Of a DNA stretch of 64,000 nt, positions 19,975 to 37,776 are shown piece by piece. The stretch comes from an uncultured cyanobacterium (GTDB taxonomy: Bacteria; Cyanobacteriota; Cyanobacteriia; PCC-9006; JAAUQQ01). Numbering within the stretch: position 1 is the stretch's first letter; each line of letters opens with the position of its first letter. The notes below the pieces were generated by a model. It was not told the DNA's origin. It ran no database searches and saw only the letters and a program-made list of their open reading frames with translations. Made by a program: the position numbers and the translations under genes. The stretch lies in the NCBI GenBank assembly GCA_963718615.1, contig OY970368.1:3360001-3424000 (forward strand). Reading direction: 5' to 3'.

Positions 19975-19995
19975 TTTGATTATCGCATCCTAAGA

Positions 19996-20029
19996 AGAGT
20001 CAATGTTCCAATTTTATAGCATTGACTTT
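19996..20029. terminator. Hairpin after LOG gene, at left edge of AT-rich island
   Basis: AGAGTCAATGT...GCATTGACTTT inverted repeat. Confidence 0.5.
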
Positions 20030-20283: not shown

Positions 20284-22896
20284 ATGAGTTACGGCCATGT
20301 TTCCGATCTAGCATCTCCTAGGAGCCAGCCAGGTCGGGATGCTGCATCCAATTCTCACCCGACCGACCCGATGTCTTCAGGTTGGTCTGAGTTTCAGCAT
20401 CTGTTCCTAACGCTGAATGAAAGCGATGGCTTTTCTCAGCTTAAACTCGTCTTGGAGAGTATGGATGATGCCATTGTTTTGCTTAATGCTCAGAGAGCAC
20501 TCCTCTTTGTCAACTCAGCCGCTAATCATCTTTTAGGAGATGGGGTGCATAGCTTTGTGCAACAAGATTGGGCAATTAGGTTAAGCGAGCTCTATGGAGC
20601 CCAAAAGTCTGCCCCAATCTCTTTGTCTGCTCAATCTTTTCTAGAGTCTACAGATTCTTCCTCCCTTTCAGAGGCAAAACCTAGAGTCTTTAAAATTTAT
20701 AGCACGGATGAGCCCGAGCAATGGATCACAGTTGTTGAACGTCCTCTCCATAATCCTCAACAGCAGTTGCTTGGCAGTTTAATTATTTGCCGTGATATCA
20801 GTGAACATAAGCGGGTTGAGGAAAAGCTGTTACATGATGCTTTCCATGACAAGCTAACGGGATTGCCCAATCGCAATCTACTACTCAAGCAGTTGGAACG
20901 GGCGATCGCCACTACTCAACAATCCTCTAAATATCAATTTTCTGTTTTATTTTTAGATCTTGATCGGTTTAAGGTCATTAATGATAGCCTTGGTCCCATA
21001 GTTGGAGACCAACTACTGATTGCAGTAGCACAACGACTGAAACGTTGCCTAAGGGTAGAAGATATAATTGTGCGCTTAGGCGGTGACGAATTTGCAATTT
21101 TGTTGAATGATATCAAAGATATCAACTATAGTCAGCAGGTTGCTGATCGAGTCAACCAAGAGCTAGTCTTACCCTTTAATCTGAATGGACATGAAGTGTT
21201 CGCGGATGTCAGTATTGGCATTGCGACTGGTGCCCAGGGGTATGAAAAACCAGAAGAAATTTTGCGGGATGCAGACATTGCAATGCACCATGCTAAAGAA
21301 CTGGGAAAATCCTGTTATCAGTTCTTTGATAAAGCGATGCATATCGATGCAGTCAAGCTGCTTCAGCTTGAAAACGATATTCGTCGAGCAGTTGATCGGA
21401 AGGAATTTCAAGTTCACTACCAACCGATCATCTCACTGCACAGCGAGGAAATTGCAGGATTTGAAGCGTTAGCTCGCTGGCGACATCCTCAACAAGGATT
21501 TATTCCTCCCTCAGAATTTATTCCCGTTGCAGAAGAAACAGGTTTAATCATTCCCCTAGGACTTTGGGTTTTACAGGAAAGCTGTTGGCAGATGAAAGTC
21601 TGGCAACTTCAGTTTCCTGAGGCGCACCAATGGACAATCAGCGTCAACATCTCCGGTCGTCAGTTGATGAAGCCACACTTTGTGGAGCATGTAAAGCATA
21701 TCTTAGCTGACACAAATCTCTCTTCTAAAAACCTAAAGCTGGAAATTACTGAGAGTGTTTTACTAAATAGTAATCAAGAGGTTACTTATATCCTAAAACA
21801 GCTTCAATCAATTGGTATTCAGCTTGCAATGGATGACTTTGGCACTGGATATTCTTCGATGAGCTATCTCTTAGATTTTCCATTTAATACGCTTAAAATT
21901 GATCGATCATTTATTAAGAGCATGGAAGGGTCTAGGAAAAAACTAGGCATTGTTCGTTCCATTATTAACATGTCAAGCAATTTAGATATGAATGTCATTG
22001 CTGAGGGTGTTGAAACTATGGGACATCTGGCTCAGCTCAAAGTTTTAAAGTGTGGCTATGGTCAGGGACATTTCTTTGCTAAAGCATTAGACTCTCAATC
22101 TGCTGAAGGGTTTATTATTTCTGAGCTTGCAAAAGTTGGAAGTAATCGTTATTCCGATCTTGAGATGTCGGTTGAAGAACTGCGATCTCGAGAACAACTA
22201 CTTCTACAAATCGAAAGCCTTCAACAGGAATTAAACGAAATTAAGCAAGAGAAAGTCGATCTTGAAATTTTATTGGAAACAGCCACAGAACATGCGAGCA
22301 TTGTCGAACTAGAATTAGAGCAAGAGATTTTCGACTATCAGAAAAACGAAGAGGCTCTTCAAAAAGCCAATCGTGAACTAGAAAATTTATCTAGCCTAGA
22401 TAGCCTAACTCAGTTGGCAAATCGCCGTCGTTTTGATGAATATATCAGAGAACAATGGGATATCTTAGGTCAACAAAACAAGCCACTCTCGCTTATTCTT
22501 TTGGATGTTGACTACTTTAAAAATTATAACGACCATTATGGACATCAAGCTGGAGATAACTGCCTCATTCAAGTTGCCCAAGTGATGATGCAATCTGTCA
22601 AAAGTTCTCAGGATTTAACGGCTCGATATGGTGGCGAAGAATTCGCAGTGATTATGCCTAATACAGGGGCAGGAAGTGCAATTAGAACTGCTGAGCAAAT
22701 CCGCATCACATTAAAATCTCGCCAAATTTCTCATGCCGGATCTCTAGTTGGTGAACATGTTACAGTCAGTCTTGGTATTGTTAGTTTAGTACCAACCGCA
22801 ACGGGCAAACCAAATGCACTGATTGACTTAGCTGATCGCGCACTCTATGAAGCTAAGTCTCAAGGGCGTGATCGGTTTATCTTATTTTCAAGCTAA
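20284..22896 (+). CDS. PAS-GGDEF-EAL-coiled coil-GGDEF c-di-GMP enzyme
   Basis: GGDEF1 'RVED..RLGGDEF'. EAL 'FEALARW' and 'DDFGTGYSS'. Coiled coil 'EKVDLEILLETATEH'. GGDEF2 'RYGGEEF'. Confidence 0.9.
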   Translation: MSYGHVSDLASPRSQPGRDAASNSHPTDPMSSGWSEFQHLFLTLNESDGFSQLKLVLESMDDAIVLLNAQRALLFVNSAANHLLGDGVHSFVQQDWAIRLSELYGAQKSAPISLSAQSFLESTDSSSLSEAKPRVFKIYSTDEPEQWITVVERPLHNPQQQLLGSLIICRDISEHKRVEEKLLHDAFHDKLTGLPNRNLLLKQLERAIATTQQSSKYQFSVLFLDLDRFKVINDSLGPIVGDQLLIAVAQRLKRCLRVEDIIVRLGGDEFAILLNDIKDINYSQQVADRVNQELVLPFNLNGHEVFADVSIGIATGAQGYEKPEEILRDADIAMHHAKELGKSCYQFFDKAMHIDAVKLLQLENDIRRAVDRKEFQVHYQPIISLHSEEIAGFEALARWRHPQQGFIPPSEFIPVAEETGLIIPLGLWVLQESCWQMKVWQLQFPEAHQWTISVNISGRQLMKPHFVEHVKHILADTNLSSKNLKLEITESVLLNSNQEVTYILKQLQSIGIQLAMDDFGTGYSSMSYLLDFPFNTLKIDRSFIKSMEGSRKKLGIVRSIINMSSNLDMNVIAEGVETMGHLAQLKVLKCGYGQGHFFAKALDSQSAEGFIISELAKVGSNRYSDLEMSVEELRSREQLLLQIESLQQELNEIKQEKVDLEILLETATEHASIVELELEQEIFDYQKNEEALQKANRELENLSSLDSLTQLANRRRFDEYIREQWDILGQQNKPLSLILLDVDYFKNYNDHYGHQAGDNCLIQVAQVMMQSVKSSQDLTARYGGEEFAVIMPNTGAGSAIRTAEQIRITLKSRQISHAGSLVGEHVTVSLGIVSLVPTATGKPNALIDLADRALYEAKSQGRDRFILFSS

Positions 22897-23203
22897 ATTA
22901 GTAAAACTATCTTTTCAAAGAGATACCTTTTAATAACATTTTGATGGACTGTATGAGTGCAAAACTAAATCATTAAAAATTGAGAAAGCTATTTACTTCT
23001 CTACAGACAATTATTAATCAATGCCTTTGGGTCTGATGAACGACATCTACTGGTGCGAATATATCGAGAATTTAAAAAGAAAAAACTAGATTTATAGGCT
23101 CACAAGGCATTGGCAAGGCATTAGCAATGTCTTACCTCCAAAAAGCATAGACTCGACAACCTCCCAAATATTCTAAACAGCCAATAAAGAGAAGAAAAAA
23201 CTT

Positions 23204-23551
23204 TTATTGTATTTCTAGTTTCAGGCTTGGCATCAAACGTTGTAAATTCTTTAGAGATTTACCCTGCCAAGGAATCTCTTCGTTACCTAGCACAGTTAAT
23301 TGAACTGTTTTACGCTTCCTAATGTTGATTACAAACTTAGATAATAAGCTAATTCCCAAGCTATTTAGGAACTGGAGCGAGCGTAAGTCAATTATAATTA
23401 GAGACGACTCTTGGTCTGCCATGGCTTCTAACATAGAGATAATTTGTTGATAATCAGGCTCACTGCCTTGAAATCTCATCGAGCCTTCCAGTCGGATAGT
23501 TGCTTGATTAGAATCGTAAAAGACACAATATTTTTCATGGGAAATTTTCAT
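23204..23551 (-). CDS. STAS-like / SiaC-like (Slr1659-type) partner-switch protein
   Basis: 115 aa. 'IDLRSLQFLNSLGISLLSKFV' carries a STAS-type phosphoacceptor helix, plus 'PWQGKSLKNLQRL'. Alternative start 23599. Confidence 0.75.
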   Translation of the reverse strand: MKISHEKYCVFYDSNQATIRLEGSMRFQGSEPDYQQIISMLEAMADQESSLIIIDLRSLQFLNSLGISLLSKFVINIRKRKTVQLTVLGNEEIPWQGKSLKNLQRLMPSLKLEIQ

Positions 23552-23667
23552 ATGTAATACTTCTTTGAATGGAGATTGAGAACTAGGCATGATATTCAAA
23601 AAATGTGAAGCAGAAAGGATCGTTAACAGCTTTAAAGATGACCAAATCGAACAGTAGTCCTATAAGT

Positions 23668-24267
23668 CTAAATAGCTAGTTGTACCATAGTCGTAACCGT
23701 TATACTATCCTGACTAGTCGACTCATATTCAAACTTCCAGCCTAACTTTGCCGAATAGTCATTTAGCATAGTAAGTAGACCCAGCCCAGAATCAATATGA
23801 TTTTCAGCATTTCTTTCGAGCTGACGAATATAAAGCTCTTCTGGATCTGAATTGACAACCTCTTCAATATAGCGTTGGAAACTTAAAACTGAATGCGGAT
23901 TGATACTGTTTTTGATAAAGAAGATAATTTTGTCGACATCAAAGCAGAGACGAATTTGCGTATAGTCTACTTGGTTTTTATAACTAAACTTCATCGCATT
24001 TTCCAATAGCTCGTTGGCAATGAAGCTTACTGCATCTTTAATTTCAGCTTGTTTTTTCTGAGCCGCAAGATCTTCGTCCTTAATTGGTAAACAAGTTACA
24101 AGATAATCAGCGAGGAAATCAGCAGATATACCATTATTGCGCCATCTTTTCCTAGGAGGAGCACTACTAGGTGTGAAATGCAAAACTAGCTGCTCTCTGC
24201 AAGGAGGTAAGGCATCAATAAAATCACCAAACGTTGTAGCTGTTGGTATTATATTTCTGATAGTCAT
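23668..24267 (-). CDS. GHKL-fold anti-sigma-like Ser/Thr kinase (SiaB-like / Slr1658-type)
   Basis: 'WRNNGISADFLADY', N-box 'NELLENAMKF', G-box 'SGLGLLTM'. Confidence 0.78.
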   Translation of the reverse strand: MTIRNIIPTATTFGDFIDALPPCREQLVLHFTPSSAPPRKRWRNNGISADFLADYLVTCLPIKDEDLAAQKKQAEIKDAVSFIANELLENAMKFSYKNQVDYTQIRLCFDVDKIIFFIKNSINPHSVLSFQRYIEEVVNSDPEELYIRQLERNAENHIDSGLGLLTMLNDYSAKLGWKFEYESTSQDSITVTTMVQLAI

Positions 24268-24295
24268 TGTTTTTCCTCGGAGTAGTTAATTAGTT

Positions 24296-26098
24296 TCAGT
24301 TTTTACGTTTAATAACTAAAAGTGTAATGTCATCGTAAATTTTACTATTGTCGATATGATCGTATAAGTCCTTAATTACAGTATCCTTAATTTCTAAAGC
24401 TGATTGATGACGGCATTGATTGATGCGATCGCACATTCGTTCCAGACCATACAACTTTCCCTCTTTACTCTCCGCTTCTGTAACACCATCAGTATAAAGA
24501 ACAATAACGTCTCCTGGATGAATATAAACCTCGGTTTGATCAATAAAATCAAGAATCTCCTCTTCAAGTCCAATGGGAAAACCCAAATCAACTGTACTAA
24601 TTTGATTAATTTTTCCAGATTGAGTAAAGATTAATACTTCCTCATGCTGTCCACTTATCTTTAAACGCCCCTCATTATAGTCAACTAGCATCAACGTCAG
24701 ATTTTTATCAGTTTCCATCCTCTTAATGTTGTGAAATATGGTTCGATTAACAACATCAAGAATTCGATTTTGTTCCGTTTCTCCATTCTCAATCAATGTT
24801 CGAATTGTGGTCTGGACCATTAACATTAACACGCCACTTTCTAGGCCGTGTCCCGTTACGTCTCCTATACCAATCCGAATAGAGTCTCCATAGCAAATCA
24901 CGTCATAATAATCTCCTCCAACTTCTTCCGCAGGCGTCATAAATCCTGCAATTTCCAGATCCTCAATTTTGGCAAGCTCTTTTTCTTTTGGAAGGATCAT
25001 TTGCTGTAACTTTTGTGTGATTTCTAATTCAGCATTTAGTCGTGTATTTTCTTGTTCTAGCTTTTGATTTAATGTTGTAATTTCATGATTAGCTTGTGCA
25101 AGTTGGTCGAGATATGAAGTTTCTTGATCTCGTAATCTTTTCTTCTCAAGACAAGCATCTACACGTGCTTTGAGTAAAACTGGATTAAAGGGCTTTGCTA
25201 GATAGTCTTCTGCCCCCATTTCAATGCATTTAACGACACTATCAATTTCGTCTAAAGATGAAATCATAATTACAGGTAAATATCGCCAATCGCTGTTTCT
25301 TAGCCATTTTAATACCTGATATCCATTAATCTCTGGCATAATAACATCGAGCAACACTAAATCAAAGCTGCCTGACGTAATTGCTTGAATTGCTTCTAAT
25401 CCACTCGAAACTTCTGTTTTCTGATGCCCTTGTCGCTGAACATATCGACTTAGTAAATCTCGATTGACAGCGTTGTTATCAACAATCAAAATATGAGATT
25501 TATAACTTAGATCAGACTTGTGTTCAGTATCTTTATTCTTAGAATGACAGTTTATTTCTTGTCTGTAGTCGGATAGAGAAGGCGAGAAGTCTGAAATATT
25601 TTCTTGTTGCTTTTGAGTCGAAAACTTTAATGGCATTGTAACTGAGCTTTGTTGGATCAAGTCTTGAAAGAGACAAGCTGCAACTTCTATTTTCTCAACA
25701 TCAGCCCTGAAGGATTTAGGTGCTAAAGGTTTAAGATTTTGGCACTTTTCCAGCAATGGCTGAGCCAAAGGCTGCAACCGTGCTCGAACCCAATGTTTTG
25801 CACAATTCGATATCTCAAAAGCTATATTTTCGTCAATGACAAACTCATCTTGCAATGATTCTATCGTTAAACCGCGACCAATATAGGATACTAAATGTTT
25901 GTTCTTTAGTGAGATCTCATGTAACTGTGACGATAGGATTTGGATATCTTGCAGATCAACTGATTCTTCCAACTCCTCTATTAATAGCTCACTGTAGCCT
26001 TGAATTGCATTTAAAGGCGTATAAAGCTCATGTCTAAAATGAGCAATCCATGAGCTATAGTCTATTAGTTCAGCATCTAATGCTTGAGACACATTCAT
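24296..26098 (-). CDS. HisKA-REC-PP2C (SpoIIE/RsbU-like) phosphatase
   Basis: 'HELYTPLNAIQGYSELL'. REC 'LLDVIMP...AKPF'. PP2C 'GGDYYD', 'GDVTGHG', 'YTDG', 'DDIT'. Confidence 0.88.
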   Translation of the reverse strand: MNVSQALDAELIDYSSWIAHFRHELYTPLNAIQGYSELLIEELEESVDLQDIQILSSQLHEISLKNKHLVSYIGRGLTIESLQDEFVIDENIAFEISNCAKHWVRARLQPLAQPLLEKCQNLKPLAPKSFRADVEKIEVAACLFQDLIQQSSVTMPLKFSTQKQQENISDFSPSLSDYRQEINCHSKNKDTEHKSDLSYKSHILIVDNNAVNRDLLSRYVQRQGHQKTEVSSGLEAIQAITSGSFDLVLLDVIMPEINGYQVLKWLRNSDWRYLPVIMISSLDEIDSVVKCIEMGAEDYLAKPFNPVLLKARVDACLEKKRLRDQETSYLDQLAQANHEITTLNQKLEQENTRLNAELEITQKLQQMILPKEKELAKIEDLEIAGFMTPAEEVGGDYYDVICYGDSIRIGIGDVTGHGLESGVLMLMVQTTIRTLIENGETEQNRILDVVNRTIFHNIKRMETDKNLTLMLVDYNEGRLKISGQHEEVLIFTQSGKINQISTVDLGFPIGLEEEILDFIDQTEVYIHPGDVIVLYTDGVTEAESKEGKLYGLERMCDRINQCRHQSALEIKDTVIKDLYDHIDNSKIYDDITLLVIKRKN

Positions 26099-26100
26099 AG

Positions 26101-26487
26101 CTACTCGTTTGAATAGGGCTGCGTTTTTTTGAGCAATGCTTCGATTTTACTAATCAGGCGTTTTAGATCTACTGGCTTAGTATCATAGTCATCACAACCG
26201 GCTTCTAGTGCCTTTTCGCGATCGCCTGACATTGCATGAGCAGTTAATGCAATAATCGGAATAGATTGAGTTTGAGGATTAAATTTAATATAACGCGTTG
26301 CTTCCCATCCATCTAAAATAGGTAAGCTCATATCCATTAAGACTAAGTCAGGTTTTTCTGCAATACTCATTGTCACACCTTGGGCCCCATCGGAAGCAAT
26401 TGCAACCTCGTAGCCACGTCGACTTAATCGTCGAGACAGCATATCTTGATTCATTTCGTTGTCTTCAACCAGAAGTAGCTTTACCAT
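26101..26487 (-). CDS. Single-domain response regulator (DivK/CheY-like)
   Basis: 'LLVEDN', 'LMDMSLP', 'LTAHAM', 'TKP'. Stop lies 2 nt from the next start. Confidence 0.92.
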   Translation of the reverse strand: MVKLLLVEDNEMNQDMLSRRLSRRGYEVAIASDGAQGVTMSIAEKPDLVLMDMSLPILDGWEATRYIKFNPQTQSIPIIALTAHAMSGDREKALEAGCDDYDTKPVDLKRLISKIEALLKKTQPYSNE

Positions 26488-26548
26488 AAATTTAAAGGTC
26501 AAAATTCTTAAAAAGATTAGGGAAATAGGCAAAAGTTTAAATCTCCAA

Positions 26549-29026
26549 CTAAGATATATATGGTATTAGTAATTGAGAGTTTTCTTTTAACCTTTCCTGT
26601 CTTTCTATTGCTTTTAATAATAGATCTTTTAATGTTGAAAGGAGAATCTTGCTTTCGCATAAATCTTTAATTAAAATTTCCTCAACTTGTCCTTGCAAAC
26701 TTTGACGTTCAATGAAAGTTAGATCTTTAGCAGTCATTAAGATAACTGGGATTGCATCATAGAGACTATCCTGCCGTAAAGCCTGTAAAAACTCAAAACC
26801 ATTCATTTTAGGCATCAAAAGATCTAATATAATTAAATTAGGATAGAAACCTGAATTTAATAGATGAAGACCTTCTATACCATTTTCAGCCGTTTTGACT
26901 ATCCAACCTGCTGGTTCAAGTTGATGCGTTAATAAGTCTCGAATGATAGGATCGTCATCAATGAGCAGGATTTCTCGATTTTCTCCCTCTTGACAACAGC
27001 GTTGTAAAACCTCATATAGTCTTTGACGATCTATTGGCTTTGTTAAATATTCTGAGGCACCGAGCGCATATCCTCGACTCTGATCGTTTACAAAACTCAT
27101 CATAATAACAGGAACCTCAGCTAGTTCTGAGTCGCTCTTAATCTGACTTAAAACAGACCAACCATCAATATCAGGCAAAATTACATCCAAGGTAATTGCC
27201 TGAGGACGGATTTCCCGAGCTAATCGTAGGCCCTCACTTCCTGTCGTAACAGTTTGTACAGCAAATCCCTGTTTAACAAGAAAACGACGCATAATGTCGT
27301 GAACGGCTAGATCATCATCTATGACTAATATCGTTTTTTGTAAGTTAGGCTTTGAAAAGTCTTCGTTTTCCTGGACAACACTTAAATTATTTTTATGGAT
27401 ATCAACCTTTCTAGGTAGTTGAATTATAAATGTGGAACCCTCTCTCAATTGACTGTCTACTTTAATGCTTCCTCCCATCATTAAACAGAACTCCTTAGTA
27501 ATTGCTAATCCAAGTCCTGTTCCTCCATACTTACGGGTAGTAGAAGCATCTGCTTGAGAAAATGCTTGAAATAACTTATTTTGCTGCTCAATCGTCATTC
27601 CAATACCCGTATCTCGAACTTTAAATAGAATCAAGTTTTGATCACTATCTTGATCCTCGACGATTTCTAAATAAATTTTTCCACAACTTGTAAACTTACT
27701 TGCATTGCTCAGTAAGTTTAGTAAGCATTGGCGAATTTTAGTTAGATCAGCATACATTTCGCCAATATCGACAGCACATTCTATAATCAACTGATTTTGC
27801 TGTTTATCTATTAATGGATGTACTGTTGTAACGACGTCCTCTATTAAATCTTGAATTGAAAAAGTTTCTAAGTAAACTTCCATTCGGCCTGCTTCTATTT
27901 TAGATAAATCTAAAATATCGTTGATCAGACCTAGCAAATGCTTTCCCGCACTATGAATTTTAACTAAATCTGGGACAAAATCTTCTTCGCCTAAATCAAG
28001 CGCCTCTTCATGCAGCATCTCACTGTATCCAATAATTGCATTAAGTGGTGTTCGTAGCTCATGACTCATATTGGCAAGAAACATACTCTTCGCCTGATTT
28101 GCCTCTTCTGCAGCGGCTTTTGCCTCACGAGCTTCTTCAATGCTATCCGCTAACTCTGTAGTTCGCTGAATGACCTTCTGTTCTAGAGTTCGATTATAGT
28201 CTGCTAAATCTTCTTTTGCCTTTTCCAAGTCAATTTGGCTACTTTCTAGAGCTTCTGTTTTATTTTGAATCATGCTAGCCATTTGATCAAACGCACGGGA
28301 AATTGTTGCGAGTTCATCAGACCCCTTGAGCTGAGCACGCACACTTAAGATTCCCTCTGATAATAAGTTACTGGCTGAGACTAACCTGGCAGCACGTCGA
28401 GTTAAGACCTCTTCAAAAAAGAACCAAACTGCTATACAAAGAAGGGTAAGAACAAAGGTGGATTCTAGCGATCGCTTTAAAGCATCTCCATAGGTCTGTT
28501 GGCGTAGGCGCTTTAAGTCATAATCTAGGAACAAAATACCAATTTTTGAGGGTAATATTTCGCCTGGATCTGACTTGAAAGCAACTGGATATAGGGCTTG
28601 AATAGATTGATGATCTGGACTGATTAAAACTTCACCTGCCTGCATTTGACGAATTTTTTCTATCTTTACATGGAGTTGATCTGCGGGAGTTTCTTCAATT
28701 GAAAGACCCTTGAGAAGCTGAGATGTCGTTAGAAGTACCTTATTTTGATCATCGAAGAGAATCGCAGACTTTAATTCAACTTCGTCTTCTAACTGACTGA
28801 TCATAAGAGCAGCACCATCCCCGCTGACGCGACGATACAAGTATTCCAAGATACCAGAGGTATGGTCGCCCATAAATCTGACGTAGTTGCTTACATTTTG
28901 CTCATTGCGACGATGAGCGAGGTATACTTCACGCCGAAATGAGTAAAAGCTAGAAAAACTACCTAAGATTAGTAAAATTAACGGAATTGAAAGGCGTAGG
29001 GGTGGTGGAAACCGCTTTGACATCAT
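26549..29026 (-). CDS. Membrane hybrid sensor histidine kinase (TM-periplasmic-TM-HAMP-HisKA-HATPase-REC-REC)
   Basis: Two TM segments, HAMP '[13 protein letters not shown]', '[12 protein letters not shown]', '[10 protein letters not shown]', 'DTGIG', 'GGTGLGL', two receivers. Confidence 0.92.
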
Positions 29027-29064
29027 CAGCTCCTAAGAAAGGACAAACAACAATCGTTGTTTGA

Positions 29065-30093
29065 CTAAGGACGAATACTTTTGATGACGCTGTCGTCCAT
29101 CAGTAGAGTTGGATCAACTGTCTTTTTCAATAAACCGTTCTGTTTCATAATTGTTACAAGATGTTTTGAGCTTTGTACTAAAGTAGATTCTTGACTTCCT
29201 AATAGAGTTTTATTTTCTTCTAGACTCGGGACTCTTACTCCTTTTAAGGATGCTAAGAAGTCTGTAGACGACATATTGTAATCAGCAGCCAAGAGTTCAG
29301 CAGATTTTTGAGGATTTGCTTCTAGATATTCTTGAGCCTTAAACCATCCTTCCAGTAGGTGTTTTAGATTACGATGTTGATTTTTGAGCGTCTCTGTATG
29401 CACACCCAGAACATCGACAATCTCTCCAGGAATCTGGCTACTATCAAATAGGTGATTTGCACCTTCCGTAACCAGTCGAGAGCTCATCGGTTCATAGGTC
29501 ACTAATCCATCAACCTTGTCTTTTTTAAAGGCTTGACCATGTTCGAAGGTTGCCAAAGGGACGATTTGCAAATCCTTAGTTGAAAGATTTACGGTTTCTA
29601 GAGCTCGGGTTAGAAGAAACGCACCTAATCCTGATGATTCAACGCCGACTCGCTTCCCTGATAGTTCCTTTAAACTGGAAATGTCAGGCTTGCCTAAAAT
29701 CGCATCGGCTCCATGGGAGCTGTCAATAACTAAGACAAAGCGCATATCCTGCATGACCTCAGCGATTGGCATTGCATCGTTCATCGTCAATGCAACGGCG
29801 TCAAGTTCACCATTTCGAAAGGCTTTGAACATTGCACTATTGGAAGAATAGGTTGTTAGGTTGGCAACATTAGAATCGTAATACTTTAAGTCCTTTGCAA
29901 GATAAAAGCTTGCATATCCTGGCCAAACAACAACACCTATCCTGATAGGATTTTCTCCAATTTGAATACAGGACGGCAAAGAAACGGTACAGAACAAAGA
30001 AACGAGAAGAAGGGAAATCCATTGAACTTTCAATTGAGAAGCAAACAACTTGATACAAGACAAAGTTTTTGCTTTCAAGAGACTTAGATCCAT
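29065..30093 (-). CDS. NMT1/SsuA-like periplasmic substrate-binding lipoprotein
   Basis: Lipobox-like 'SLPSC', 'IGVVVWPGY..FYLA', 'D.S.GADAI', 'TYEP', 'PGEIVDVL'. Confidence 0.85.
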   Translation of the reverse strand: MDLSLLKAKTLSCIKLFASQLKVQWISLLLVSLFCTVSLPSCIQIGENPIRIGVVVWPGYASFYLAKDLKYYDSNVANLTTYSSNSAMFKAFRNGELDAVALTMNDAMPIAEVMQDMRFVLVIDSSHGADAILGKPDISSLKELSGKRVGVESSGLGAFLLTRALETVNLSTKDLQIVPLATFEHGQAFKKDKVDGLVTYEPMSSRLVTEGANHLFDSSQIPGEIVDVLGVHTETLKNQHRNLKHLLEGWFKAQEYLEANPQKSAELLAADYNMSSTDFLASLKGVRVPSLEENKTLLGSQESTLVQSSKHLVTIMKQNGLLKKTVDPTLLMDDSVIKSIRP

Positions 30094-30146
30094 GACTCAA
30101 TACCTCAAAAATAAAGAGAAAAACTATATTGGTTTATTAATGAAAC

Positions 30147-31199
30147 CTATTGGTTAGACGCTAGTGCTTCAATAAGATGATTGTCAATCAATTCTTCTAG
30201 TGGATAAATCTTTTGAAGATGGTGACTTTGTGCCAATTCTTCTTGAAGCTTATGTACACATTTTTCTAACCATGATTCTTTGAGAGAGAGCATCCTTGCA
30301 TTTTCCTCTAAAGTATATTCATGAATTCCTTGCATTGCTTTGAAAAGTTCTTTACTCATTAGCTTATTGCGAGCAAAAATTATTTTAGCCGCATCTTGAG
30401 GCTTGTTTCTGTAGTATTCTTGTGCTTTAAACCAACCGTTTATGAGCTCTTGAAGAGCTAATTTATAGCTTTCTATTGAATCATCTCGAACCAACAAAAC
30501 ATCAACGATCTCGTTCAGCATTTGATGACTACTAAAGACTTCTTGAGCTCCTTCTGCTATTAGCTGAGAAAGAATTGGTTCATAGGTGATAATCGTAGAA
30601 ACTGATGACTGACGGAATGAATTAATTTGATCATTCAGATCAAGGGGAACAACCTGAATATCCTCTATCGTCAGTCCTGCCAGATCGAGTAGACGTGTGA
30701 GCATTAAGGTTCCCCGGCTCGAAGCTTCTATAGCAACAGTTTGTTTTTTTAATTCATAGAGAGATTTTATAGGATTTCGAGTAATAACAGCATCTGCCCC
30801 ACAGGAACTACTCAAGATCAAGACAATTTTGAGATGCGGATCTGTATCTGAAAGAAGCAAAGCATCTCCCAATGAAAGCAGTAATCCGTCAAGTTGCTGA
30901 TTGCGAAAGGCACGATTTTTATCTTCAACGGTAGGATAATTAATCAGCCTAATATCTTGTTGATCGTAATAGCCTAAACGTTGAGCAAGATAAACGTTGT
31001 TATAAGAAAGGCCAGTAGTTGTTCCAATTCTGAGAGGAGCTGCATTCGAGGTGCAACTCACAAAGGCTAGACTAATAGCGCTAATGAGTCCAACCAAAAG
31101 CGTCTTGAAGCGATGTTTTTTGGGAACCGGCGATCGCCAAGCGGAATATATTCTATTGATCAATCTAATTGATCTAAGTGGTAGAGAACGGCGCATCAC
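30147..31199 (-). CDS. Second, divergent NMT1/SsuA-like substrate-binding lipoprotein
   Basis: Lipobox-like 'AFVSC', 'SCGADAVI', 'TYEP', 'EIVDVL'. Paralog of the neighbour but lacks WPGY. Confidence 0.8.
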   Translation of the reverse strand: MMRRSLPLRSIRLINRIYSAWRSPVPKKHRFKTLLVGLISAISLAFVSCTSNAAPLRIGTTTGLSYNNVYLAQRLGYYDQQDIRLINYPTVEDKNRAFRNQQLDGLLLSLGDALLLSDTDPHLKIVLILSSSCGADAVITRNPIKSLYELKKQTVAIEASSRGTLMLTRLLDLAGLTIEDIQVVPLDLNDQINSFRQSSVSTIITYEPILSQLIAEGAQEVFSSHQMLNEIVDVLLVRDDSIESYKLALQELINGWFKAQEYYRNKPQDAAKIIFARNKLMSKELFKAMQGIHEYTLEENARMLSLKESWLEKCVHKLQEELAQSHHLQKIYPLEELIDNHLIEALASNQ

Positions 31200-31648
31200 C
31201 TTTACTTACCCAACAAACTGCTGGAAATTGACTCATTATCCTTTTGACCCATTAATCGCCTTTAACTCCGTCTCTGTTTTATAGAAAAGCGGTTTATCTA
31301 CGGCTTTGGATAGGATGTCCTTCAGTATGCCCAGCGAGATTTTAAAACCGACAAAATTTGATTAGTCCGTAAAACCTAGGAAGCACTTGAGTCATGATTC
31401 TCTAGGAAACCGTGTTTTTACTCAATTCTCCTTAGTCAGGGTTATCTATGCTAGATATGTAGATCTTGTCTATGGGCTTCATCTCTATTACTTAGAAGCT
31501 GTCTGCTTAAATGTTATCCGTCTTGTCGTTTTCCATCTTGATTGCTATCTAGCGTTGATCACTCAGTTGATTCATCAAGTTGGTACACTCAATTAGTACG
31601 TCGCCATTCTCATCCATCATTCTTGTACGTTGTAGAGTTTTGAACACA

Positions 31649-32872
31649 ATGAAATCCTCTGTGCATAGGCTGAATGACATTACCCAGCATGAAATTGAGG
31701 CACTCAAACATGAATATAATATGTCTGATGCTCATACACATCAATCTCAGTCTCCAAGCCAGAGGAAAATTGTAGAGCGTCTACCACAGCTTTGGTTTGA
31801 CGCAGAGAATAAGCGACAACATGAGTTAGAGCAATGCTTCTTAGAAAATTTCTTTCGGGTACAGGGACGACCTTGGGCGCTTAAAAATAAGCTTCCTATG
31901 CTGGTCTATTCAGCTTCAATTGCAATGGCAATTACTGCAAACTACCTGCTTAAGAAAAAGCTGACTGTAAGTTTAATTCATCCATGTTTTGACAACTTGG
32001 TCGATCTGATGAAAAACATGCAGGTTCCACTTCAAGCACTTGAAGAGGAATGGCTGTATGATCCCGAAATGATCTATGAGAATCTCGAAAAGAATGTCAA
32101 GAGTGACGCTATCTTCTTGGTTGATCCTAACAATCCATCTGGATTTACGCTATATCAGCAAGGAATAGTCGGTTGGCAAGAGCTAATCCGGTTTGCGAAA
32201 GAAAACAAAAAGTTGCTGATTTTTGACTTTTGCTTTGCAGCTTTCATGCTGAATAACAAAAATCTACAGCTCTTCGACATTTATGAAATGTTGGAGACTT
32301 CTGGTGTAAGCTATATTGCGATGGAGGATACGGGTAAGACTTGGCCGCTACAAGATGCTAAGGTTGCTATGCTTAAAAGCAGTGCTGATCTTTACGCGGA
32401 TATCTACAATCTTTATACTGCTTATCTTCTGAACGTATCACCTTTTATACTGAATATCGTAACTCAGTATATTCTTGATTCTGAAAAAGATAAATTTGCA
32501 TCAGTGCACGGTTTGCTGAGCCGCAATCGTGCGATCGCTGAAGGAATTCTCAAAGATTCTATTTTAGAACCAATGACTCCTTTGGTGAATGTTAGTGTGA
32601 TGTGGTGTCGAATCAACAGTGAACAGATTCAATCTAGTCAGCTCAAGACTTACTTGACAGAATTTGACATTCACATTTTACCTGGAACTTTCTTTTTCTG
32701 GAATTCACCCCAGCGCGGCGAACGCTTTATTCGCTTGGCTTTAGCGCGTAATACTGAAACTTTCGAACCTGCCGTACGAGCCCTTCGAGATGCTGTTGAC
32801 CAATACGAAGTTTTCCTCTCCGCTCAGAAAACTCAGCGGGATTTATGCTCCCCTAGTAACGCCCTTTTATAA
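31649..32872 (+). CDS. rohP: PLP-dependent L-arginine oxidase, RohP/MppP family (aminotransferase class I/II fold)
   Basis: Family N-terminus 'DITQHEIEAL...YNMSDAHTHQSQS', 'HPCFDNL', 'VDPNNPSG', 'DFCFA', PLP-Lys motif 'EDTGKTWP.QDAK', 'LNVSPF', 'RLALAR'. Recognised from memory of the RohP/MppP sequences. Confidence 0.85.
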   Translation: MKSSVHRLNDITQHEIEALKHEYNMSDAHTHQSQSPSQRKIVERLPQLWFDAENKRQHELEQCFLENFFRVQGRPWALKNKLPMLVYSASIAMAITANYLLKKKLTVSLIHPCFDNLVDLMKNMQVPLQALEEEWLYDPEMIYENLEKNVKSDAIFLVDPNNPSGFTLYQQGIVGWQELIRFAKENKKLLIFDFCFAAFMLNNKNLQLFDIYEMLETSGVSYIAMEDTGKTWPLQDAKVAMLKSSADLYADIYNLYTAYLLNVSPFILNIVTQYILDSEKDKFASVHGLLSRNRAIAEGILKDSILEPMTPLVNVSVMWCRINSEQIQSSQLKTYLTEFDIHILPGTFFFWNSPQRGERFIRLALARNTETFEPAVRALRDAVDQYEVFLSAQKTQRDLCSPSNALL

Positions 32873-33644
32873 GGGACAGTTTGATCAAGACTCACTCTAT
32901 CGCCTGATGGATACGATTGAGCCCTTTGCAGAGGGATTTGTACCCTGTTTGAGTTCTGGCGAAGGTCAGTTTCTTTCCCTCTCAACTTGGCAGAATGTTA
33001 TCCAGGCAACGCGTCAATATACTCAGAAGGTAGTTATTGCGGGGATCAAACGTGAAACTCTACAAGAGACAATAGCGTTAGGTAAACTGGCACAACAGTT
33101 GGGTTGTGATGCCATTATTGTGCCGGTACCTGTCTCAGATGATAGGGTTACCGTTGGTTACTTCAATCAAATTACCGCTGCGATCGCCCTACCCATTGTT
33201 ATCTATAATACGGAAAGCCATTCTATTCAATCACTAGATGGTTTAAGGCAACTGGAGAGCTTACCTCAAATCATTGCTATTAAGGATTCTTCCATGAATG
33301 AAGAATTTTTTAAGCTCCTTTGTAATTTGAGAACTCAAGCGCAGCTCCGTCTTTCGGTTCTACAGGGATTTGAACATCTTTTGCAAGTCCCCCCTGGTTG
33401 TGATGGCTATCTCATTGCCTTGGCAAATCTTGAACCAGAGCTTTGCCATCGAATGTTGCTTGAAAATTCTGATGTGATCAATAGTGAAATTCTAGATTGC
33501 TTTTGGCGTTATAACCTGGGTGCTGATTGGTTTGTGAGTATGAAGGCAATTTTGATGGCTCGCCAAGTCATTCGCTCTGCGGAACAAGTTAATCTAATGG
33601 TTCAACCCGATCTTAAATCGGTTCCTAATTTGGCGATCGCATAG
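32790..33644 (+). CDS. DHDPS/NAL-family class I aldolase, RohR-like (4-hydroxy-2-ketoarginine retro-aldolase candidate)
   Basis: 'PLVTPF', 'CLSSGEG', 'IYN', Schiff-base 'IKDSS'. Overlaps the 3' end of the rohP-like gene. Confidence 0.78.
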   Translation: MLLTNTKFSSPLRKLSGIYAPLVTPFYKGQFDQDSLYRLMDTIEPFAEGFVPCLSSGEGQFLSLSTWQNVIQATRQYTQKVVIAGIKRETLQETIALGKLAQQLGCDAIIVPVPVSDDRVTVGYFNQITAAIALPIVIYNTESHSIQSLDGLRQLESLPQIIAIKDSSMNEEFFKLLCNLRTQAQLRLSVLQGFEHLLQVPPGCDGYLIALANLEPELCHRMLLENSDVINSEILDCFWRYNLGADWFVSMKAILMARQVIRSAEQVNLMVQPDLKSVPNLAIA

Positions 33645-33716
33645 CCATCATCAAGCTTAACTAAGCATGCTTCCATCATTCCAATGATCGAGTGGATAAA
33701 AACAAGTTAACTGATT

Positions 33717-33750
33717 GCCTGCGATTTTTTTTATGAGTTGCAGGCTTTTT
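33717..33750 (+). terminator. Probable terminator after the aldolase gene
   Basis: GCCTGCGATT...AGTTGCAGGC followed by TTTTT. Confidence 0.6.
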
Positions 33751-33956
33751 CGATATTTAATTTGATCAATAACCCAATGCTGTGTAATTTACTTAAGCTT
33801 GAATGTTTTCAAATAAATTTGAAATTTTAGGCTACTTAGTCTGATATTGCTTTTGTTTTATTCATAAAAAGTTCGGATTGTATCTATGAACTAGGAAGAT
33901 GGAAATAGAGATGGCTATCACGGTTATTTCTTGCTTATCTTCATTGCTTTATTTCT

Positions 33957-34457
33957 ATGTTGGGCTGGATCTTCTTGGCTTTTGCAGTTTGTTTGGATGT
34001 TCTGGGCACATTTGCTGCAAAATATGCGAATGGGTTTACAACACTGATTCCATCACTCATTACTATTGGGGCCTATTGTTTATCATTTACAGCGTTGACC
34101 TTTTCGATCAAAACACTCGATGTCAGCGTGGCTTATCCGGTTTGGACTGGCTCTGCAATCTTTTTAGTGGCTGTTTTAGGGGCTGTATTCTTCCACGAAA
34201 CGGTCAATTTCTTTAAAGTCTTTTCAACACTTTTGGTCGTCTTTGGCATCGTTGGCTTAGTGGTTAGTAGCCAGCCCGATGCAGCGGCTTGTCCGCCGGA
34301 GGTAGAACAAACTCAGCACCTACTCCAGAGCAGTAATCGCCCAAGGCTGTCCATGTCTCCTGTCTTTCATCGATTAGGCACACCTGTACTCTATGCAACT
34401 GTTAAGGGATACTCTGCCAACGTCATTCGTTTAAAGCCAGAGTTTTCTGAAAACTAA
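33957..34457 (+). CDS. SMR (EmrE/QacE-like) small transporter with Asp14 and ~60-aa C-terminal extension
   Basis: Four TM segments: 'W..L..AV.LDV.GT...K...GF', 'SF..L', 'VAYPVWTG', 'F.E', 'G...L'. Confidence 0.85.
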   Translation: MLGWIFLAFAVCLDVLGTFAAKYANGFTTLIPSLITIGAYCLSFTALTFSIKTLDVSVAYPVWTGSAIFLVAVLGAVFFHETVNFFKVFSTLLVVFGIVGLVVSSQPDAAACPPEVEQTQHLLQSSNRPRLSMSPVFHRLGTPVLYATVKGYSANVIRLKPEFSEN

Positions 34458-34495
34458 GGATGGCAACGCAATCTCGTGCTTAGGTTGCCATCCTT
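34456..34495. terminator. Hairpin between convergent SMR and pepA (right edge of island)
   Basis: AAGGATGGCAAC...GTTGCCATCCTT perfect 12-bp stem. Confidence 0.75.
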
Positions 34496-34516
34496 GAGAG
34501 ACTCAACAGGAAATTT

Positions 34517-34551
34517 TAAGACAAGAATTCTAAGACAAGAATTCTAAGACA
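34517..34551 (+). repeat. 14-bp tandem repeat x2.5 (TAAGACAAGAATTC)
   Basis: Directly visible just past the pepA stop. Confidence 0.8.
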
Positions 34552-34558
34552 GAAACTC

Positions 34559-36049
34559 CTAGGACAATACCCAGTTGACTAGCGTCCGAACCCCATAACC
34601 AGTTGCTCCAGCCGGACTGTAACCATGCTCTTTGTCAGCCCAGACGGGTCCTGCAACGTCGAGATGTGCCCAAGCGGAGGTTTCTTTGACAAATTCCCGT
34701 AGGAATAAAGCCGCAGTGATCGACCCCCCTGCCCGTGGACCTGTGTTTTTCATGTCAGCGATCGGGGATTTGATGCCTTCAAAATACCGATCTTCTAGGG
34801 GCATTTGCCAAAGTTTTTCACCCGCCAAATCCGCTGCTGCCTTGAGGGAAGTTGCAAGATCATCATCAATGCTCCAGAGCCCCGCAATGTCATTGCCCAA
34901 GGCCACGACACAGGCTCCTGTCAAGGTTGCTAGGTCAACGATCGCATCCACTCCCAGCTGATCAGCATAGACCAAAGCATCTGCTAGCGTGAGCCGTCCT
35001 TCTGCGTCGGTGTTGTTCACTTCAATGGTTTTGCCGTTGGACGCGGTCAGAATGTCGCCGGGGCGCATGGCATGACCACTAATCATATTCTCCGTCACAG
35101 CGCTGATAAAATGAACCTCCACATCGGGTTTAAGTTGGGCGATCGCCTTAGCCGCACCCAGCGTCGCAGCCGCTCCCCCCATATCCATTTTCATCGTCTC
35201 AATACCACTCCCCGGCCCCTTGAGATTGAGTCCTCCGGAATCAAAAGTTAATCCTTTGCCGACGATCGCCAGCTTTTTGCGCGGGGACCCCTCGGGACGA
35301 TAGATCAAATGAATAAACTTAGGGGGTAAATCAGACGCCTGGGCAACGCCCAGGAATGCGCCCATACCTCGGGCCTCACAAGCCTCTTTTTCTAATATTT
35401 CCAAGCTTAAGCCATAATCATTGGCCAGTTGCTGAGCAATGTCTGCCATGGCCGGGGGATCAATCCGGTTCGGTGGTGCCGCGACCAACTGCCTTGCTAA
35501 AACTACACCGGAAACAATTTTTTCGGCTTGGGCGATCGCCGCCTCTTGCTGGTCCAGATCGAGTAAGCTTACTCTCTGAATTTCCGAAGGATTCTCATCG
35601 TCTGGTTTCGACTTAAAGCGATGATCTTCGTACAGTGCTAACAAGACCCCTTCCACCAAAGCTTGCGTGGTGGCTGCCGGATCGCCGCTCCAGCAAGGCA
35701 AACTCAATGCCAACGTCTGGCACCGCTGTTTTTGAGCCGCCTTGGCGGCGGTGGCCGCTGCGCGTCGCAGACCCTCCAGCGTCAACGTTTCTGAGGCCCC
35801 TAAGCCCACCAGGATGAGCTTTTTAACGGGACTGTCCCGCCCGACCCGTAGAACCGTACTGCTATTGCTTTTGCCTGTGAACTTGGCATCAGCGATCGCA
35901 TCCGAAAGAGCGCCCTCCAAGCGCTCATCCAACGCGCTCCAATTGCTTGAAACCGTCCCATCCTCTTGAATATCCGTCTCGCAGAGCCCCAACGCTAGGG
36001 CATCACCGGTCCAACTCAACGCGGAAGTAGAAGTTGCTTGAAAATCCAT
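34559..36049 (-). CDS. pepA: Leucyl aminopeptidase (M17)
   Basis: '[10 protein letters not shown]', 'MKMDMGG', 'NTDAEGRL', 'LATLTGA'. Confidence 0.96.
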
Positions 36050-36231
36050 GCTTGCTATTATCTTCGAAATCCTACTGATCTTGCTATCCTTCAGTCTGCC
36101 GTGATACCCGCATTCCCGGCAATCCTCTTCTCCAGATTCTCCCAGGGATTTGTGAAATAAGGCCCTGTCAAGGGCACGTTTGCCTCCGTGGGTGAGCGCT
36201 TAAAAATCGGCTAGCATCAGCCATATCATGC

Positions 36232-37776
36232 ATGGCTGGGAAATGGAGCCTCATATCAATGGAGATTGTTGCTGGGTTCGGGTTGCGCTCAGAGACTGCG
36301 TTAGGTGTTTTCTCAGACCCCCAGGGGATTGAATCCTGGGAGGGGATTGGGGTCGGGCTCGGAATGCTGGCTGGGACTGGGGCTGGGATTGGAATTGGAA
36401 TTGGAATTGGAGCAGAGACGCCACGAGAGGAGTTGGAGCGGTTGAGCGGGGCGATCGCCCAAGACTCGATCACCCTGGATCCCACCCAGGAATCGCTCAC
36501 GTTTTGGCCTAGTCACGACACCAATAATACGCTCACCACAGCCCAATCCTTAGGAATCTTAGAAGACTCGATTGTTCTCCAAGGCAGCCTGGGAGAAGCC
36601 GAATTTTTAGGACTGGATACCCAGGATTATTTCCAATTTCAAATTGAAGAGCCATCGCGCATTAACTTGACCTTGGACTATCTGAGTGCCGATGCCGATT
36701 TAGAGATTTTGGATGCTCAAGGCAATGTATTGCTTCAATCTAACCGTTGGGGAACCGCGACAGAGGCCATTACCTATCGGGTTGAGCAGACTGGGTTCTA
36801 CTATGCGCGAGTGATTTGGGAAGCACCTCAAACCTTTCCACTGACGTTGCCCGCAACGGATTACGAATTGCGTTTGGTGTCGCTGGAGAGCGATTTGCAG
36901 GTGGGCGATCGCACCTATCCCGATGGCGTTAGTTTCTGGCGTTACGATGCCCAAGGCCAAATTGAACAGGGGGTGGGTAATGAGGCGATCGCTACCAACC
37001 AAAATACAATCCTGGTTATCCATGGCAATAATCCCGATGGCCGGAGCCTCCGCGAAGACACCCAAATTGAGTCCCTCGCCAAGCAGGCAGCGACGGCCTA
37101 TCCTGCCTATCAAGTGCTAGCGCTAGACTGGAAAAAACCTGCGGCCAACGGCAAGGACTTGGTCCCGCTGGAATCGGCTCAGGCCATTCAGCCTGTGGCA
37201 CTGTGGGCCAAGGCTACGTTAGAATCTTTAGGATTAAGTGCCGATCAAATCAGTATATTTGGCCATAGTTTAGGCTCCTATGTGGGGGCCGAAATTGGCC
37301 GCTTGTTGAACCAAGTAAATGCATTAGTGGCCTTGGATCCAGCCTTTCCCGCCCAAAACTATGACATCAATGGCAATGAGCCAGGACAGCAAAAGATTAC
37401 GAATTTCAACTTGGCAGCTACGCGATCGATCGCCTTTGTGGCCTCCGATGAACGGGGTGGAATTGCTGGGGACAATAACCAAGCGGCAACGGCCCAGGCT
37501 TCGTTTATTGTGCAGTTTGAAGATCCCCGCTGGTTTGCCTTTACGGCTTTGGAGTATCACGGGGGCGTAGTTGAAGTATTTTCCAGCTTGCTACAACAGG
37601 ATCAGTTGATGTTTTCTGGCTATAGCAACAATTGGTTTGGTAATCGGGGCGGGCGCTATCGCAATCCCCGTGCAACGGCCCATGAAGGGGTTATTGTGGC
37701 CCATGAAGTCGATGGTGTTTGGCAGGCGGATCAATGGGGATTTGTGCCGGGGGATGGGGCGATCGCCTGGGTCTAG
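36232..37776 (+). CDS. PPC-domain + alpha/beta-hydrolase (pancreatic-lipase-like motif set) protein
   Basis: PPC 'DYFQF...DADLEILD...G.YY.RV'. Hydrolase 'IHG', 'LDW', 'GHSLGS', 'ALDPAFP'. Start uncertain (Gly/Ile-rich N-terminus). Confidence 0.7.
   Translation: MAGKWSLISMEIVAGFGLRSETALGVFSDPQGIESWEGIGVGLGMLAGTGAGIGIGIGIGAETPREELERLSGAIAQDSITLDPTQESLTFWPSHDTNNTLTTAQSLGILEDSIVLQGSLGEAEFLGLDTQDYFQFQIEEPSRINLTLDYLSADADLEILDAQGNVLLQSNRWGTATEAITYRVEQTGFYYARVIWEAPQTFPLTLPATDYELRLVSLESDLQVGDRTYPDGVSFWRYDAQGQIEQGVGNEAIATNQNTILVIHGNNPDGRSLREDTQIESLAKQAATAYPAYQVLALDWKKPAANGKDLVPLESAQAIQPVALWAKATLESLGLSADQISIFGHSLGSYVGAEIGRLLNQVNALVALDPAFPAQNYDINGNEPGQQKITNFNLAATRSIAFVASDERGGIAGDNNQAATAQASFIVQFEDPRWFAFTALEYHGGVVEVFSSLLQQDQLMFSGYSNNWFGNRGGRYRNPRATAHEGVIVAHEVDGVWQADQWGFVPGDGAIAWV

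Follow-up and report, generated by a model that had tools for sequence, protein, structure and literature searches.

The window analysed here is a stretch of 64,000 nucleotides (G000:C1:3360001-3424000) from a complete cyanobacterial genome that forms a single contig of 6.10 Mb. It carries two overlapping genes whose products resemble RohP and RohR, the first enzyme and the retro-aldolase of the bacterial pathway to azomycin (2-nitroimidazole). In window positions, the two genes are:

31649 to 32872, plus strand: rohP-like gene, encoding P0001 (407 aa), a predicted O2- and pyridoxal phosphate (PLP)-dependent L-arginine oxidase/4-hydroxylase
32790 to 33644, plus strand: rohR-like gene, encoding P0002 (284 aa), a predicted DHDPS-family class I (Schiff-base) retro-aldolase

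Alignment of the start regions of four related loci favoured ATG 31649 over the upstream TTG 31580 as the start codon of rohP. The two genes overlap by 83 nt on the same strand. This overlap takes in just the last 21 residues of P0001, which form an unconserved tail, and the conserved N-terminus of P0002 (G17, P21, T24 and P25) is encoded within it; for these two reasons we consider the overlap to be real.

A first-pass annotation of the window, made from its letters, had described an arginine-oxidase signature followed by a DHDPS-family aldolase and had proposed a RohP-like and RohR-like pair. Both statements were borne out. All three motifs of the signature are present in P0001, namely TQHEIEAL at residues 12-19 (nt 31682-31705), DAHTHQ at 27-32 (31727-31744) and EDTGKTWP at 226-233 (32324-32347). 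The protein contains the fold-type I aminotransferase domain (Pfam Aminotran_1_2, PF00155; E 1.5e-8) and aligned without gaps, over residues 8-386, with Protein Data Bank (PDB) entry 6c3a (E 9e-126, 423 bits), the sequence of which is identical to those of 6c3b-d; so strong a match is well outside what chance would give. Similarity to MppP (5dj1) was much lower (E 4e-47, 164 bits), as it was to 7n79, which we take to be Plu4 (5.8e-42), and ordinary aminotransferases matched at 1e-5 or worse. The PDB label of 6c3a is only 'Uncharacterized protein'; the name RohP comes via 6C3C, which is so named in a preprint (bioRxiv 10.64898/2026.02.25.707955). P0001 scored far below the NCBIfam equivalog cut-offs for MppP (TIGR04462, 164.4 against 450) and for GntC (NF041364, 63.9 against 415), and it shares 50% identity with RohP from Streptomyces eurocidicus ATCC 27428 (locus L075).

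The same preprint lists catalytic and binding residues of MilM, 14 of which were mapped here. Thirteen have an identical residue in P0001 when the numbering is shifted by a constant -2 (in MilM numbering Lys232, His31, Thr14, Glu17, Asn118, Arg364, Ser92, Phe116, Asn164, Asp195, Lys240, Tyr89 and Thr259), and none of these 13 varies among 17 aligned relatives. By this mapping P0001 has the catalytic lysine (K230), the hydroxylation histidine (H29) and the substrate-holding residues T12, E15 and R362. The conserved histidine is required for hydroxylation according to the mutants RohP H34A and MilM H31A, as given in the preprint (bioRxiv 10.64898/2026.02.25.707955). A phylogeny gave the same picture. 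On a 47-row tree, obtained by a quick LG+G4 search and rooted on five MppP-like Streptomyces proteins with long, flagged branches, the RohP-type proteins formed one clade of 42 rows (SH-aLRT 100) that included P0001 and excluded the five outgroup proteins; the five-row group of the window had a support of 99. These comparisons confirm P0001, at the level of sequence, as a predicted RohP-type arginine hydroxylase rather than an MppP, a desaturase, a GntC or an ordinary aminotransferase.

P0002 matched the Pfam family DHDPS (PF00701) at E 7e-21 and the RohR of S. eurocidicus over its full length with 33% identity (E 8e-44). In the reciprocal search, the best match of this RohR in the genome of the window was P0002 (5e-34), the next one, elsewhere in the genome, reaching 4e-7; a second DHDPS-family gene is present elsewhere in this genome. 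P0002 is not DapA-like, as its best match to a solved DapA was 2e-14 and its score with the NCBIfam dapA model was 75.8 bits against a cut-off of 206. Of the 37 columns with at least 93% conservation among 30 RohR-like proteins, P0002 retains 34, including the S-x-G-E-G motif, Tyr139 and the Schiff-base Lys165; these two residues, K165 and Y139, also correspond to the Lys and Tyr that are conserved in the solved DapA chains. The reciprocal best match to S. eurocidicus RohR supports its assignment as a predicted RohR-type retro-aldolase. Both enzymes are intact in their sequences, with the catalytic residues of their families present, and their genes are co-oriented and overlapping.

The S. eurocidicus locus L075 was used as the reference for the remaining roh genes. 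There, rohP is followed by genes for a DUF6190 protein, a 275-aa DHDPS-family protein, a PF14518 protein and a 516-aa open reading frame (ORF) without Pfam family. The DUF6190 protein matches the PDB entries for 'RohQ' (9oq8/9c5w) and the PF14518 protein matches 'PbrRohS' (9pfx), so that the gene order is consistent with the published rohPQRST; the 516-aa ORF is called RohT here by position alone. As described in PMC10724926, RohP is the oxidase, RohR the retro-aldolase, RohQ the cyclodehydratase and RohS the N-oxygenase, and PMC13133933 treats azomycin biosynthesis as a five-gene roh cluster. A second locus in the genome of S. eurocidicus, itself an azomycin producer (G001, C15:422713-425753) has RohP-like, RohQ-like and PF14518 genes, while rohPQRST itself is on C17.

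The first-pass annotation had recognized no RohQ, RohS, NRPS (nonribosomal peptide synthetase) or MppQ/MppR genes in the window, and a whole-genome search extended this to the complete genome for RohQ and for orthologous RohS. No RohQ was found in the whole genome with Pfam DUF6190 (PF19689; best E 0.36) or with the RohQ protein of S. eurocidicus (best E 0.35), and profile A2, in which the divergent RohQ-like proteins of the window's clade are included, gave nothing at E<=10. As a control, the same profile gave two matches in S. eurocidicus G001 and also matched in the proteobacterial metagenome-assembled genome (MAG) G003 and in the Patescibacteria genome G004; it had no match in the related cyanobacterial MAG G002. 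Likewise, no RohS orthologue was found in the whole complete genome, nor within the island around the pair, the single PF14518 protein above the cut-off being a distant one. A BLASTP search with the 516-aa ORF of L075 among the ORFs of positions 15000-40000 of the window, the region searched for RohT, gave no match. In the Patescibacteria genome G004, which measures 0.9 Mb, PF14518 proteins are missing altogether.

From this set of genes we consider it probable that the two-gene operon converts L-arginine to pyruvate and guanidinoacetaldehyde, and the latter to 2-aminoimidazole, without azomycin being made. In the first step, the RohP-like PLP enzyme would use O2 to oxidize L-arginine, which would be hydrated to (S)-4-hydroxy-2-ketoarginine, with 2-ketoarginine as by-product and with release of NH3 and H2O2. 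The RohR-like enzyme would then form a Schiff base via Lys165 and split this compound by retro-aldol cleavage into pyruvate and guanidinoacetaldehyde. In the third step, guanidinoacetaldehyde would cyclize and dehydrate to 2-aminoimidazole; because the genome is without RohQ, this step is proposed to be non-enzymatic. The RohQ reaction is reportedly spontaneous, a word that stands in the title of a 2025 paper on RohQ. As there is no RohS orthologue, a fourth step is not expected and azomycin would not be produced. The first two steps are modelled on characterized homologues, as described in PMC12464687, PMC10724926 and the preprint (bioRxiv 10.64898/2026.02.25.707955); the first of these sources gives 4-hydroxy-2-ketoarginine as the arginine hydroxylase product and names several pathways that are fed by RohP-type enzymes.

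P0001 has 856 relatives at E<=1e-30 among 3623 candidates from a search of 5.8 billion proteins. The closest ones are 72-75% identical and 407-409 aa long; next come many proteins of 448 aa whose identity is about 67%. The loci compared were the best 80 from species genomes (of 185 pattern matches, 166 were confirmed) and the best 80 from metagenome contigs (199 of 340), and their ORFs were scored by profiles for RohP, RohR, RohQ and RohS (P, R, Q and S) and for binding proteins. A FastTree tree of 157 RohP-type proteins and 5 outgroups (162 rows; the short fragments L009, L123, L136 and L166 were left out) placed the window in a clade of 37 tips (local support 90), whose members come from Pseudanabaenaceae MAGs, proteobacterial MAGs and Patescibacteria/Peregrinibacteria. 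Where the sequence downstream of rohP covered 3 kb or more, the gene sets of the loci were as follows:

Window's clade, 23 loci: P-R 11, P-R-Q 10, P alone 2, P-Q-R-S 0
Other 120 tips, 86 loci: P-R 2, P-R-Q 2, P alone 4, P-Q-R-S 78

RohS is thus present in none of the 23 assessable loci of the window's clade. When 3 kb were required on both sides, the clade retained 10 P-R, 6 P-R-Q, 2 P alone and no P-Q-R-S among 18 loci, against 66 P-Q-R-S of 73 loci outside it. The third gene of the proteobacterial and Patescibacteria loci encodes a divergent DUF6190 protein (E 1e-14 to 6e-16, above the Pfam cut-off) and lies mostly 3' of R, not between P and R. The proposal of the first-pass annotation that the end product is guanidinoacetaldehyde or 2-aminoimidazole rather than azomycin is supported, at the level of gene content, by these nearest relatives, which add to the pair only a RohQ-type cyclodehydratase and never RohS. 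Its description of the pathway as 'truncated' is misleading and was not established, as the pair belongs to a separate RohS-less clade. The rohP-rohR pair is a conserved type within this separate lineage, which spans three phyla, and no decayed remnant of five genes. The 47-row tree does not order the three main RohP-type groups, so that loss of RohS and its original absence are indistinguishable.

Among the known systems, the rohPQRST cluster (S. eurocidicus L075, and also Pseudomonas and Kitasatospora) resembles the window in its first enzyme (50% identity) and its retro-aldolase (33%), in having them encoded by adjacent genes on the same strand and in its precursor, arginine. The two differ in that the genome of the window has no RohQ or RohS, that RohT was not found in window positions 15000-40000 and that the predicted product is 2-aminoimidazole instead of 2-nitroimidazole. 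They also differ in gene order, since in the separate RohP clade of the window the loci with Q are mostly P-R-Q whereas the known cluster is P-Q-R-S. A locus of a Myxococcota MAG (L032) is P-R-Q without RohS, like the window's clade, but it keeps the RohQ that the cyanobacterial pair lacks. Its RohP groups with the actinobacterial and myxobacterial P-Q-R-S set, outside the window's clade, and for this reason it looks like an independent loss. The MppP/MppQ/MppR system of enduracididine and MilM of mildiomycin have in common with P0001 the O2- and PLP-dependent arginine 4-hydroxylase chemistry, which is predicted here, and the active-site residues, as listed for MilM in the preprint. However, MppP is distant, with 164 bits where RohP reaches 423, the surroundings of the window's pair contain neither cyclase or aminotransferase genes nor nucleoside genes, and, unlike in those systems, the partner enzyme is an aldolase predicted to destroy the carbon skeleton. 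Three other cyanobacterial loci, from Lyngbya, Phormidiaceae and Microcoleus (L024, L037 and L041), also have a RohP-type enzyme (48-49% identity) beside a DHDPS-family gene. They differ from the window in that the DHDPS is canonical and is accompanied by genes for methyltransferases, TauD and NRPS modules, with an OprB-type porin gene ahead, and in that their RohP-like proteins form a group of their own (SH-aLRT 100). These loci are probably clusters for an arginine-derived nonribosomal peptide.

Several points weigh against the proposed pathway. Every chemical step in it is taken over from homologues. P0002 is only 33% identical to the RohR of the characterized cluster, and its predicted substrate specificity is deduced from its family and from the adjacency of the two genes. 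One of the residues mapped from the list for MilM differs (Ser260, which is Ala258 in P0001), and the offset of -2 was assumed to be constant rather than obtained by alignment to the MilM sequence. With regard to the locus counts, the R, Q and S profiles were built from the loci that they scored, with thresholds of our own choice, and near-duplicate metagenome contigs (for instance L119/L120, L128/L129 and L183/L184) make the counts overstate independence. An unlinked enzyme could divert guanidinoacetaldehyde before it cyclizes. Finally, the closest solved relative of the distant PF14518 protein, an HDO-type protein, is PbrRohS (E 1e-17), so there is a small probability that it may act on 2-aminoimidazole.

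This last protein is the basis of a different reading, in which azomycin would still be made because the HDO protein replaces RohS and converts 2-aminoimidazole to 2-nitroimidazole. It is encoded at G000:C1:3848345-3849526 (393 aa), it has the PF14518 domain (E 1.5e-31), and SznF is also among its best solved relatives. Yet its identity to RohS is 25% over 183 residues, it has an N-terminal extension of about 165 residues, and a profile made from 25 RohS proteins of roh clusters gave it 88.8 bits, against at least 266 for the full-length cluster members. Moreover, it lies about 455 kb from rohP-rohR in a different gene context, and none of the seven other genomes of the family, including four that do have rohP-rohR, has a counterpart at E<=1e-20. 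In its neighbourhood (G000:C1:3846748-3851520; L194 5748-10520) it is flanked by a divergent gene of the PAD/agmatine-deiminase type on one side and by a methyltransferase and a Mn catalase on the other, and it could represent a separate pathway of guanidino-group N-oxygenation. We regard the synthesis of azomycin by this route as highly improbable. Scarcely more probable is that the aldolase acts on another substrate, or forms a bond rather than cleaving one, so that a building block derived from 4-hydroxy-2-ketoarginine would go into an unrecognized natural product, as with MilM and MppP. RohP-type enzymes do supply several different pathways, according to PMC12464687, and the three cyanobacterial peptide-type loci mentioned above pair a RohP-like with a DHDPS-family protein among methyltransferase, TauD and NRPS genes. 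But the DHDPS partners of those loci are canonical (Pfam E 1e-57 to 1e-63, with only 51-74 bits on the RohR profile) and their RohP-like proteins group separately, and near the window's pair there are no NRPS, ligase or tailoring genes, its neighbours being signalling genes.

Oxidative catabolism of arginine, by which pyruvate and ammonia would be harvested and the aldehyde oxidized to guanidinoacetate and degraded by unlinked enzymes, with 2-aminoimidazole as a mere by-product, is a reading that we hold to be unlikely. The predicted reaction does yield pyruvate and ammonia, in keeping with PMC10724926, PMC12464687 and bioRxiv 10.64898/2026.02.25.707955; an Orn/Lys/Arg decarboxylase gene lies directly upstream of rohP in one proteobacterial locus (L007); and Patescibacteria with tiny genomes carry the cassette. 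Against it, genes for an aldehyde dehydrogenase, an amidinohydrolase or an arginine transporter are not conserved neighbours in the 38 clustered loci, where the only recurring neighbours are R, Q, binding proteins, kinases, recombinases, methyltransferases and one unknown ORF. Besides, a RohQ-type cyclodehydratase, which would commit the aldehyde to 2-aminoimidazole, is encoded by the third gene in 10 of the clade's 23 assessable loci, and such a catabolic route would waste the guanidino nitrogen and produce H2O2. Formation of 2-aminoimidazole by the rohP-rohR pair is the reading that we find the most probable.

The other features of the locus are:

31408 to 31455, strand undefined: conserved spacer block, from the alignment of the window with L001-L004
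33717 to 33745, plus strand: terminator-like hairpin, a consensus match with an 11-bp stem and a T run
29065 to 31199, minus strand: two NMT1/SsuA-type binding-protein genes (Pfam, NCBIfam), which head a divergent sensor-kinase operon
33957 to 34457, plus strand: SMR-family small transporter gene (166 aa; Pfam Multi_Drug_Res, E 1.5e-21)

The hairpin starts 73 nt past the stop codon of rohR, and its position suggests that rohP-rohR is a transcription unit of two genes; three such sites occur in the region, against 3.4 expected from shuffles. On the other side, a divergent spacer of 449 bp separates the binding-protein gene from rohP. The block of about 48 bp at 31408-31455 (alignment columns ~418-460) is the sole well conserved stretch of this spacer in all five loci, which represent three genera, and it is possibly a shared promoter or operator of the binding-protein operon and rohP, a candidate pointed out by its conservation. 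A scan for sigma-70 promoters gave no more sites than shuffles and did not pick out this block. Control by a riboswitch, such as a guanidine riboswitch ahead of rohP or of the SMR gene, was considered and rejected, since there was no Rfam match at E<=1 across 19000-36500, the conserved spacer block included. The SMR transporter is a weak candidate for a dedicated exporter. It lies beyond the terminator-like hairpin, its top NCBIfam match (SugE, 73 bits against a cut-off of 126) is below the cut-off, as are all others in that collection, and it adjoins rohR in only two of the five cyanobacterial loci (the window and L001), being four genes on in L002 and not found in L003 and L004. This gene is probably a separate unit and part of the chromosomal flank rather than a member of the pathway. 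In two related cyanobacterial MAGs (L002 12593-15682 and L004 12584-15704), a set of DUF2282, MbnB/TglH/ChrH, DUF2063 and CAAX-protease genes is inserted between rohR and the flank with the SMR or aminopeptidase gene.

Other neighbours were noted in the remaining phyla of the clade. In Patescibacteria-type contigs that lack RohQ, a conserved ORF of about 147 aa lies directly 3' of rohR (L119 4220-4660, L120 9922-10362, L121 2515-2958, L125 2369-2809 and L015 7166-7636). In L119, L120, L121 and L125 it has no Pfam family and no match in the window's genome; a S-adenosylmethionine (SAM) methyltransferase often comes next, and the ORF could be an alternative third enzyme. Proteobacterial MAGs have as neighbours a PRMT5-like arginine methyltransferase, a BTAD-TPR regulator or an Orn/Lys/Arg decarboxylase (L005 4967-6052, minus strand; L005 13139-15211, plus strand; L007 7311-9320, plus strand).

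The genes between 20236 and 34457 of the window have a G+C content of 0.36-0.45, compared with 0.53 for the rest, and rohP-rohR stands at the right-hand end of this island. Within the window the cassette itself is poorer in G+C than the DNA around it (0.41-0.43 against 0.53), and the same holds in L012 (0.36 against 0.53-0.55) and in L005 (0.48 against 0.54-0.58). This low G+C content, together with the patchy distribution, suggests horizontal spread of the cassette. Genes for large serine recombinases were found within a few kb of the cassette in L014, L116, L119, L120 and L128, and a tRNA gene lies at about 2.2 kb or less from it in 7 of the 15 Patescibacteria-type loci scanned (L012, L014, L015, L017, L120, L126 and L128); in L014 and L128 the tRNA gene directly flanks the recombinase. 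The Patescibacteria-type cassette is thus placed as the cargo of integrative islands would be, and the cassette is apparently mobile. In the window's own island there is no recombinase, and no tRNA gene was found in 15000-40000.

Upstream of rohP and divergent from it are the two NMT1/SsuA-type binding-protein genes (SBP1 and SBP2), followed by genes for a hybrid kinase, a receiver, a PP2C-receiver protein, a partner-switch pair and a GGDEF-EAL protein. Binding-protein and kinase genes adjoin rohP-rohR in all five cyanobacterial loci (the window and L001-L004). Among the eight genomes of the family, RohP, RohR and an orthologue of SBP2 occur together in the same five, on the same contigs, and all three are missing from the other three, which are 88, 87 and 62% complete. 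The pair and the adjacent island of binding-protein, kinase and cyclic di-GMP (c-di-GMP) genes behave as one unit of presence and absence; the family is the whole order in our sample (the same eight genomes) and these genomes are kin, so they do not replicate the pattern independently. In two proteobacterial MAGs (L005 and L009), rohP is directly preceded on its own strand by genes for a methyl-accepting chemotaxis protein and for an NMT1-type binding protein; in L013 a CheA-like gene and a weak match to NMT1 were found upstream of rohP. Outside the window's clade an NMT1-type binding protein was found in one of 86 loci (L032), and no binding protein of this kind occurs in the longer Patescibacteria or metagenome loci.

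Two stronger forms of this association were rejected. The binding proteins are not orthologues shared across phyla, as the best matches of the L005 protein in the window's genome are encoded elsewhere, with SBP2 third and SBP1 sixth, and the best match of SBP2 in G003 is not the gene adjacent to rohP. Nor is the link between SBP2 and rohP-rohR obligatory: among 301 cyanobacterial genomes sampled, an SBP2-like protein (E<=1e-50) was found in 29 and a RohP-type gene in 7, and both together only in the five family genomes and in G392, where they are on different contigs. Outside the family, 24 of the sampled genomes bear an SBP2-like protein, and 23 of them are without a RohP-type gene; the exception is G392.

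It is conceivable that 2-aminoimidazole or its aldehyde precursor, rather than being waste or a means of defence, is a self-made signal or effector, sensed by the binding-protein-kinase pair or by a receiver domain, that would set the level of c-di-GMP and thereby the lifestyle. We put this forward because in all five loci the operon stands next to the sensor genes and is transcribed away from them, because both are present or absent together in the eight genomes, and because NMT1 and chemotaxis genes precede rohP in L005 and L009, with a binding protein of this type in just one of the 86 loci outside the clade. The binding proteins of different phyla that are not mutual best matches, and the many SBP2-bearing genomes without a RohP-type gene, count against it. 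A signalling role of the product is for us a minority reading, and quite an unlikely one.

The RohS-less branch, P-R or P-R-Q, is a new variant of the known roh pathway; in the literature searched, rohPR(Q) cassettes without RohS were not found described, although the primary papers under subscription (Hedges & Ryan 2019 and the 2025 RohQ paper) may mention them. The findings point to a second, nitro-less roh branch, with its own RohP lineage, in cyanobacteria, proteobacterial MAGs and Patescibacteria with tiny genomes. If the product is confirmed, free 2-aminoimidazole would be a natural product in its own right, and the cyanobacterial pair is a natural case in which to ask whether cells need the RohQ cyclodehydratase in vivo. 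Synthetic 2-aminoimidazoles have been studied as antibiofilm agents that bind response regulators, according to PMC5816815 and PMC10294662. Should the signalling role prove true, the product of this operon would be a natural counterpart to these synthetic compounds.

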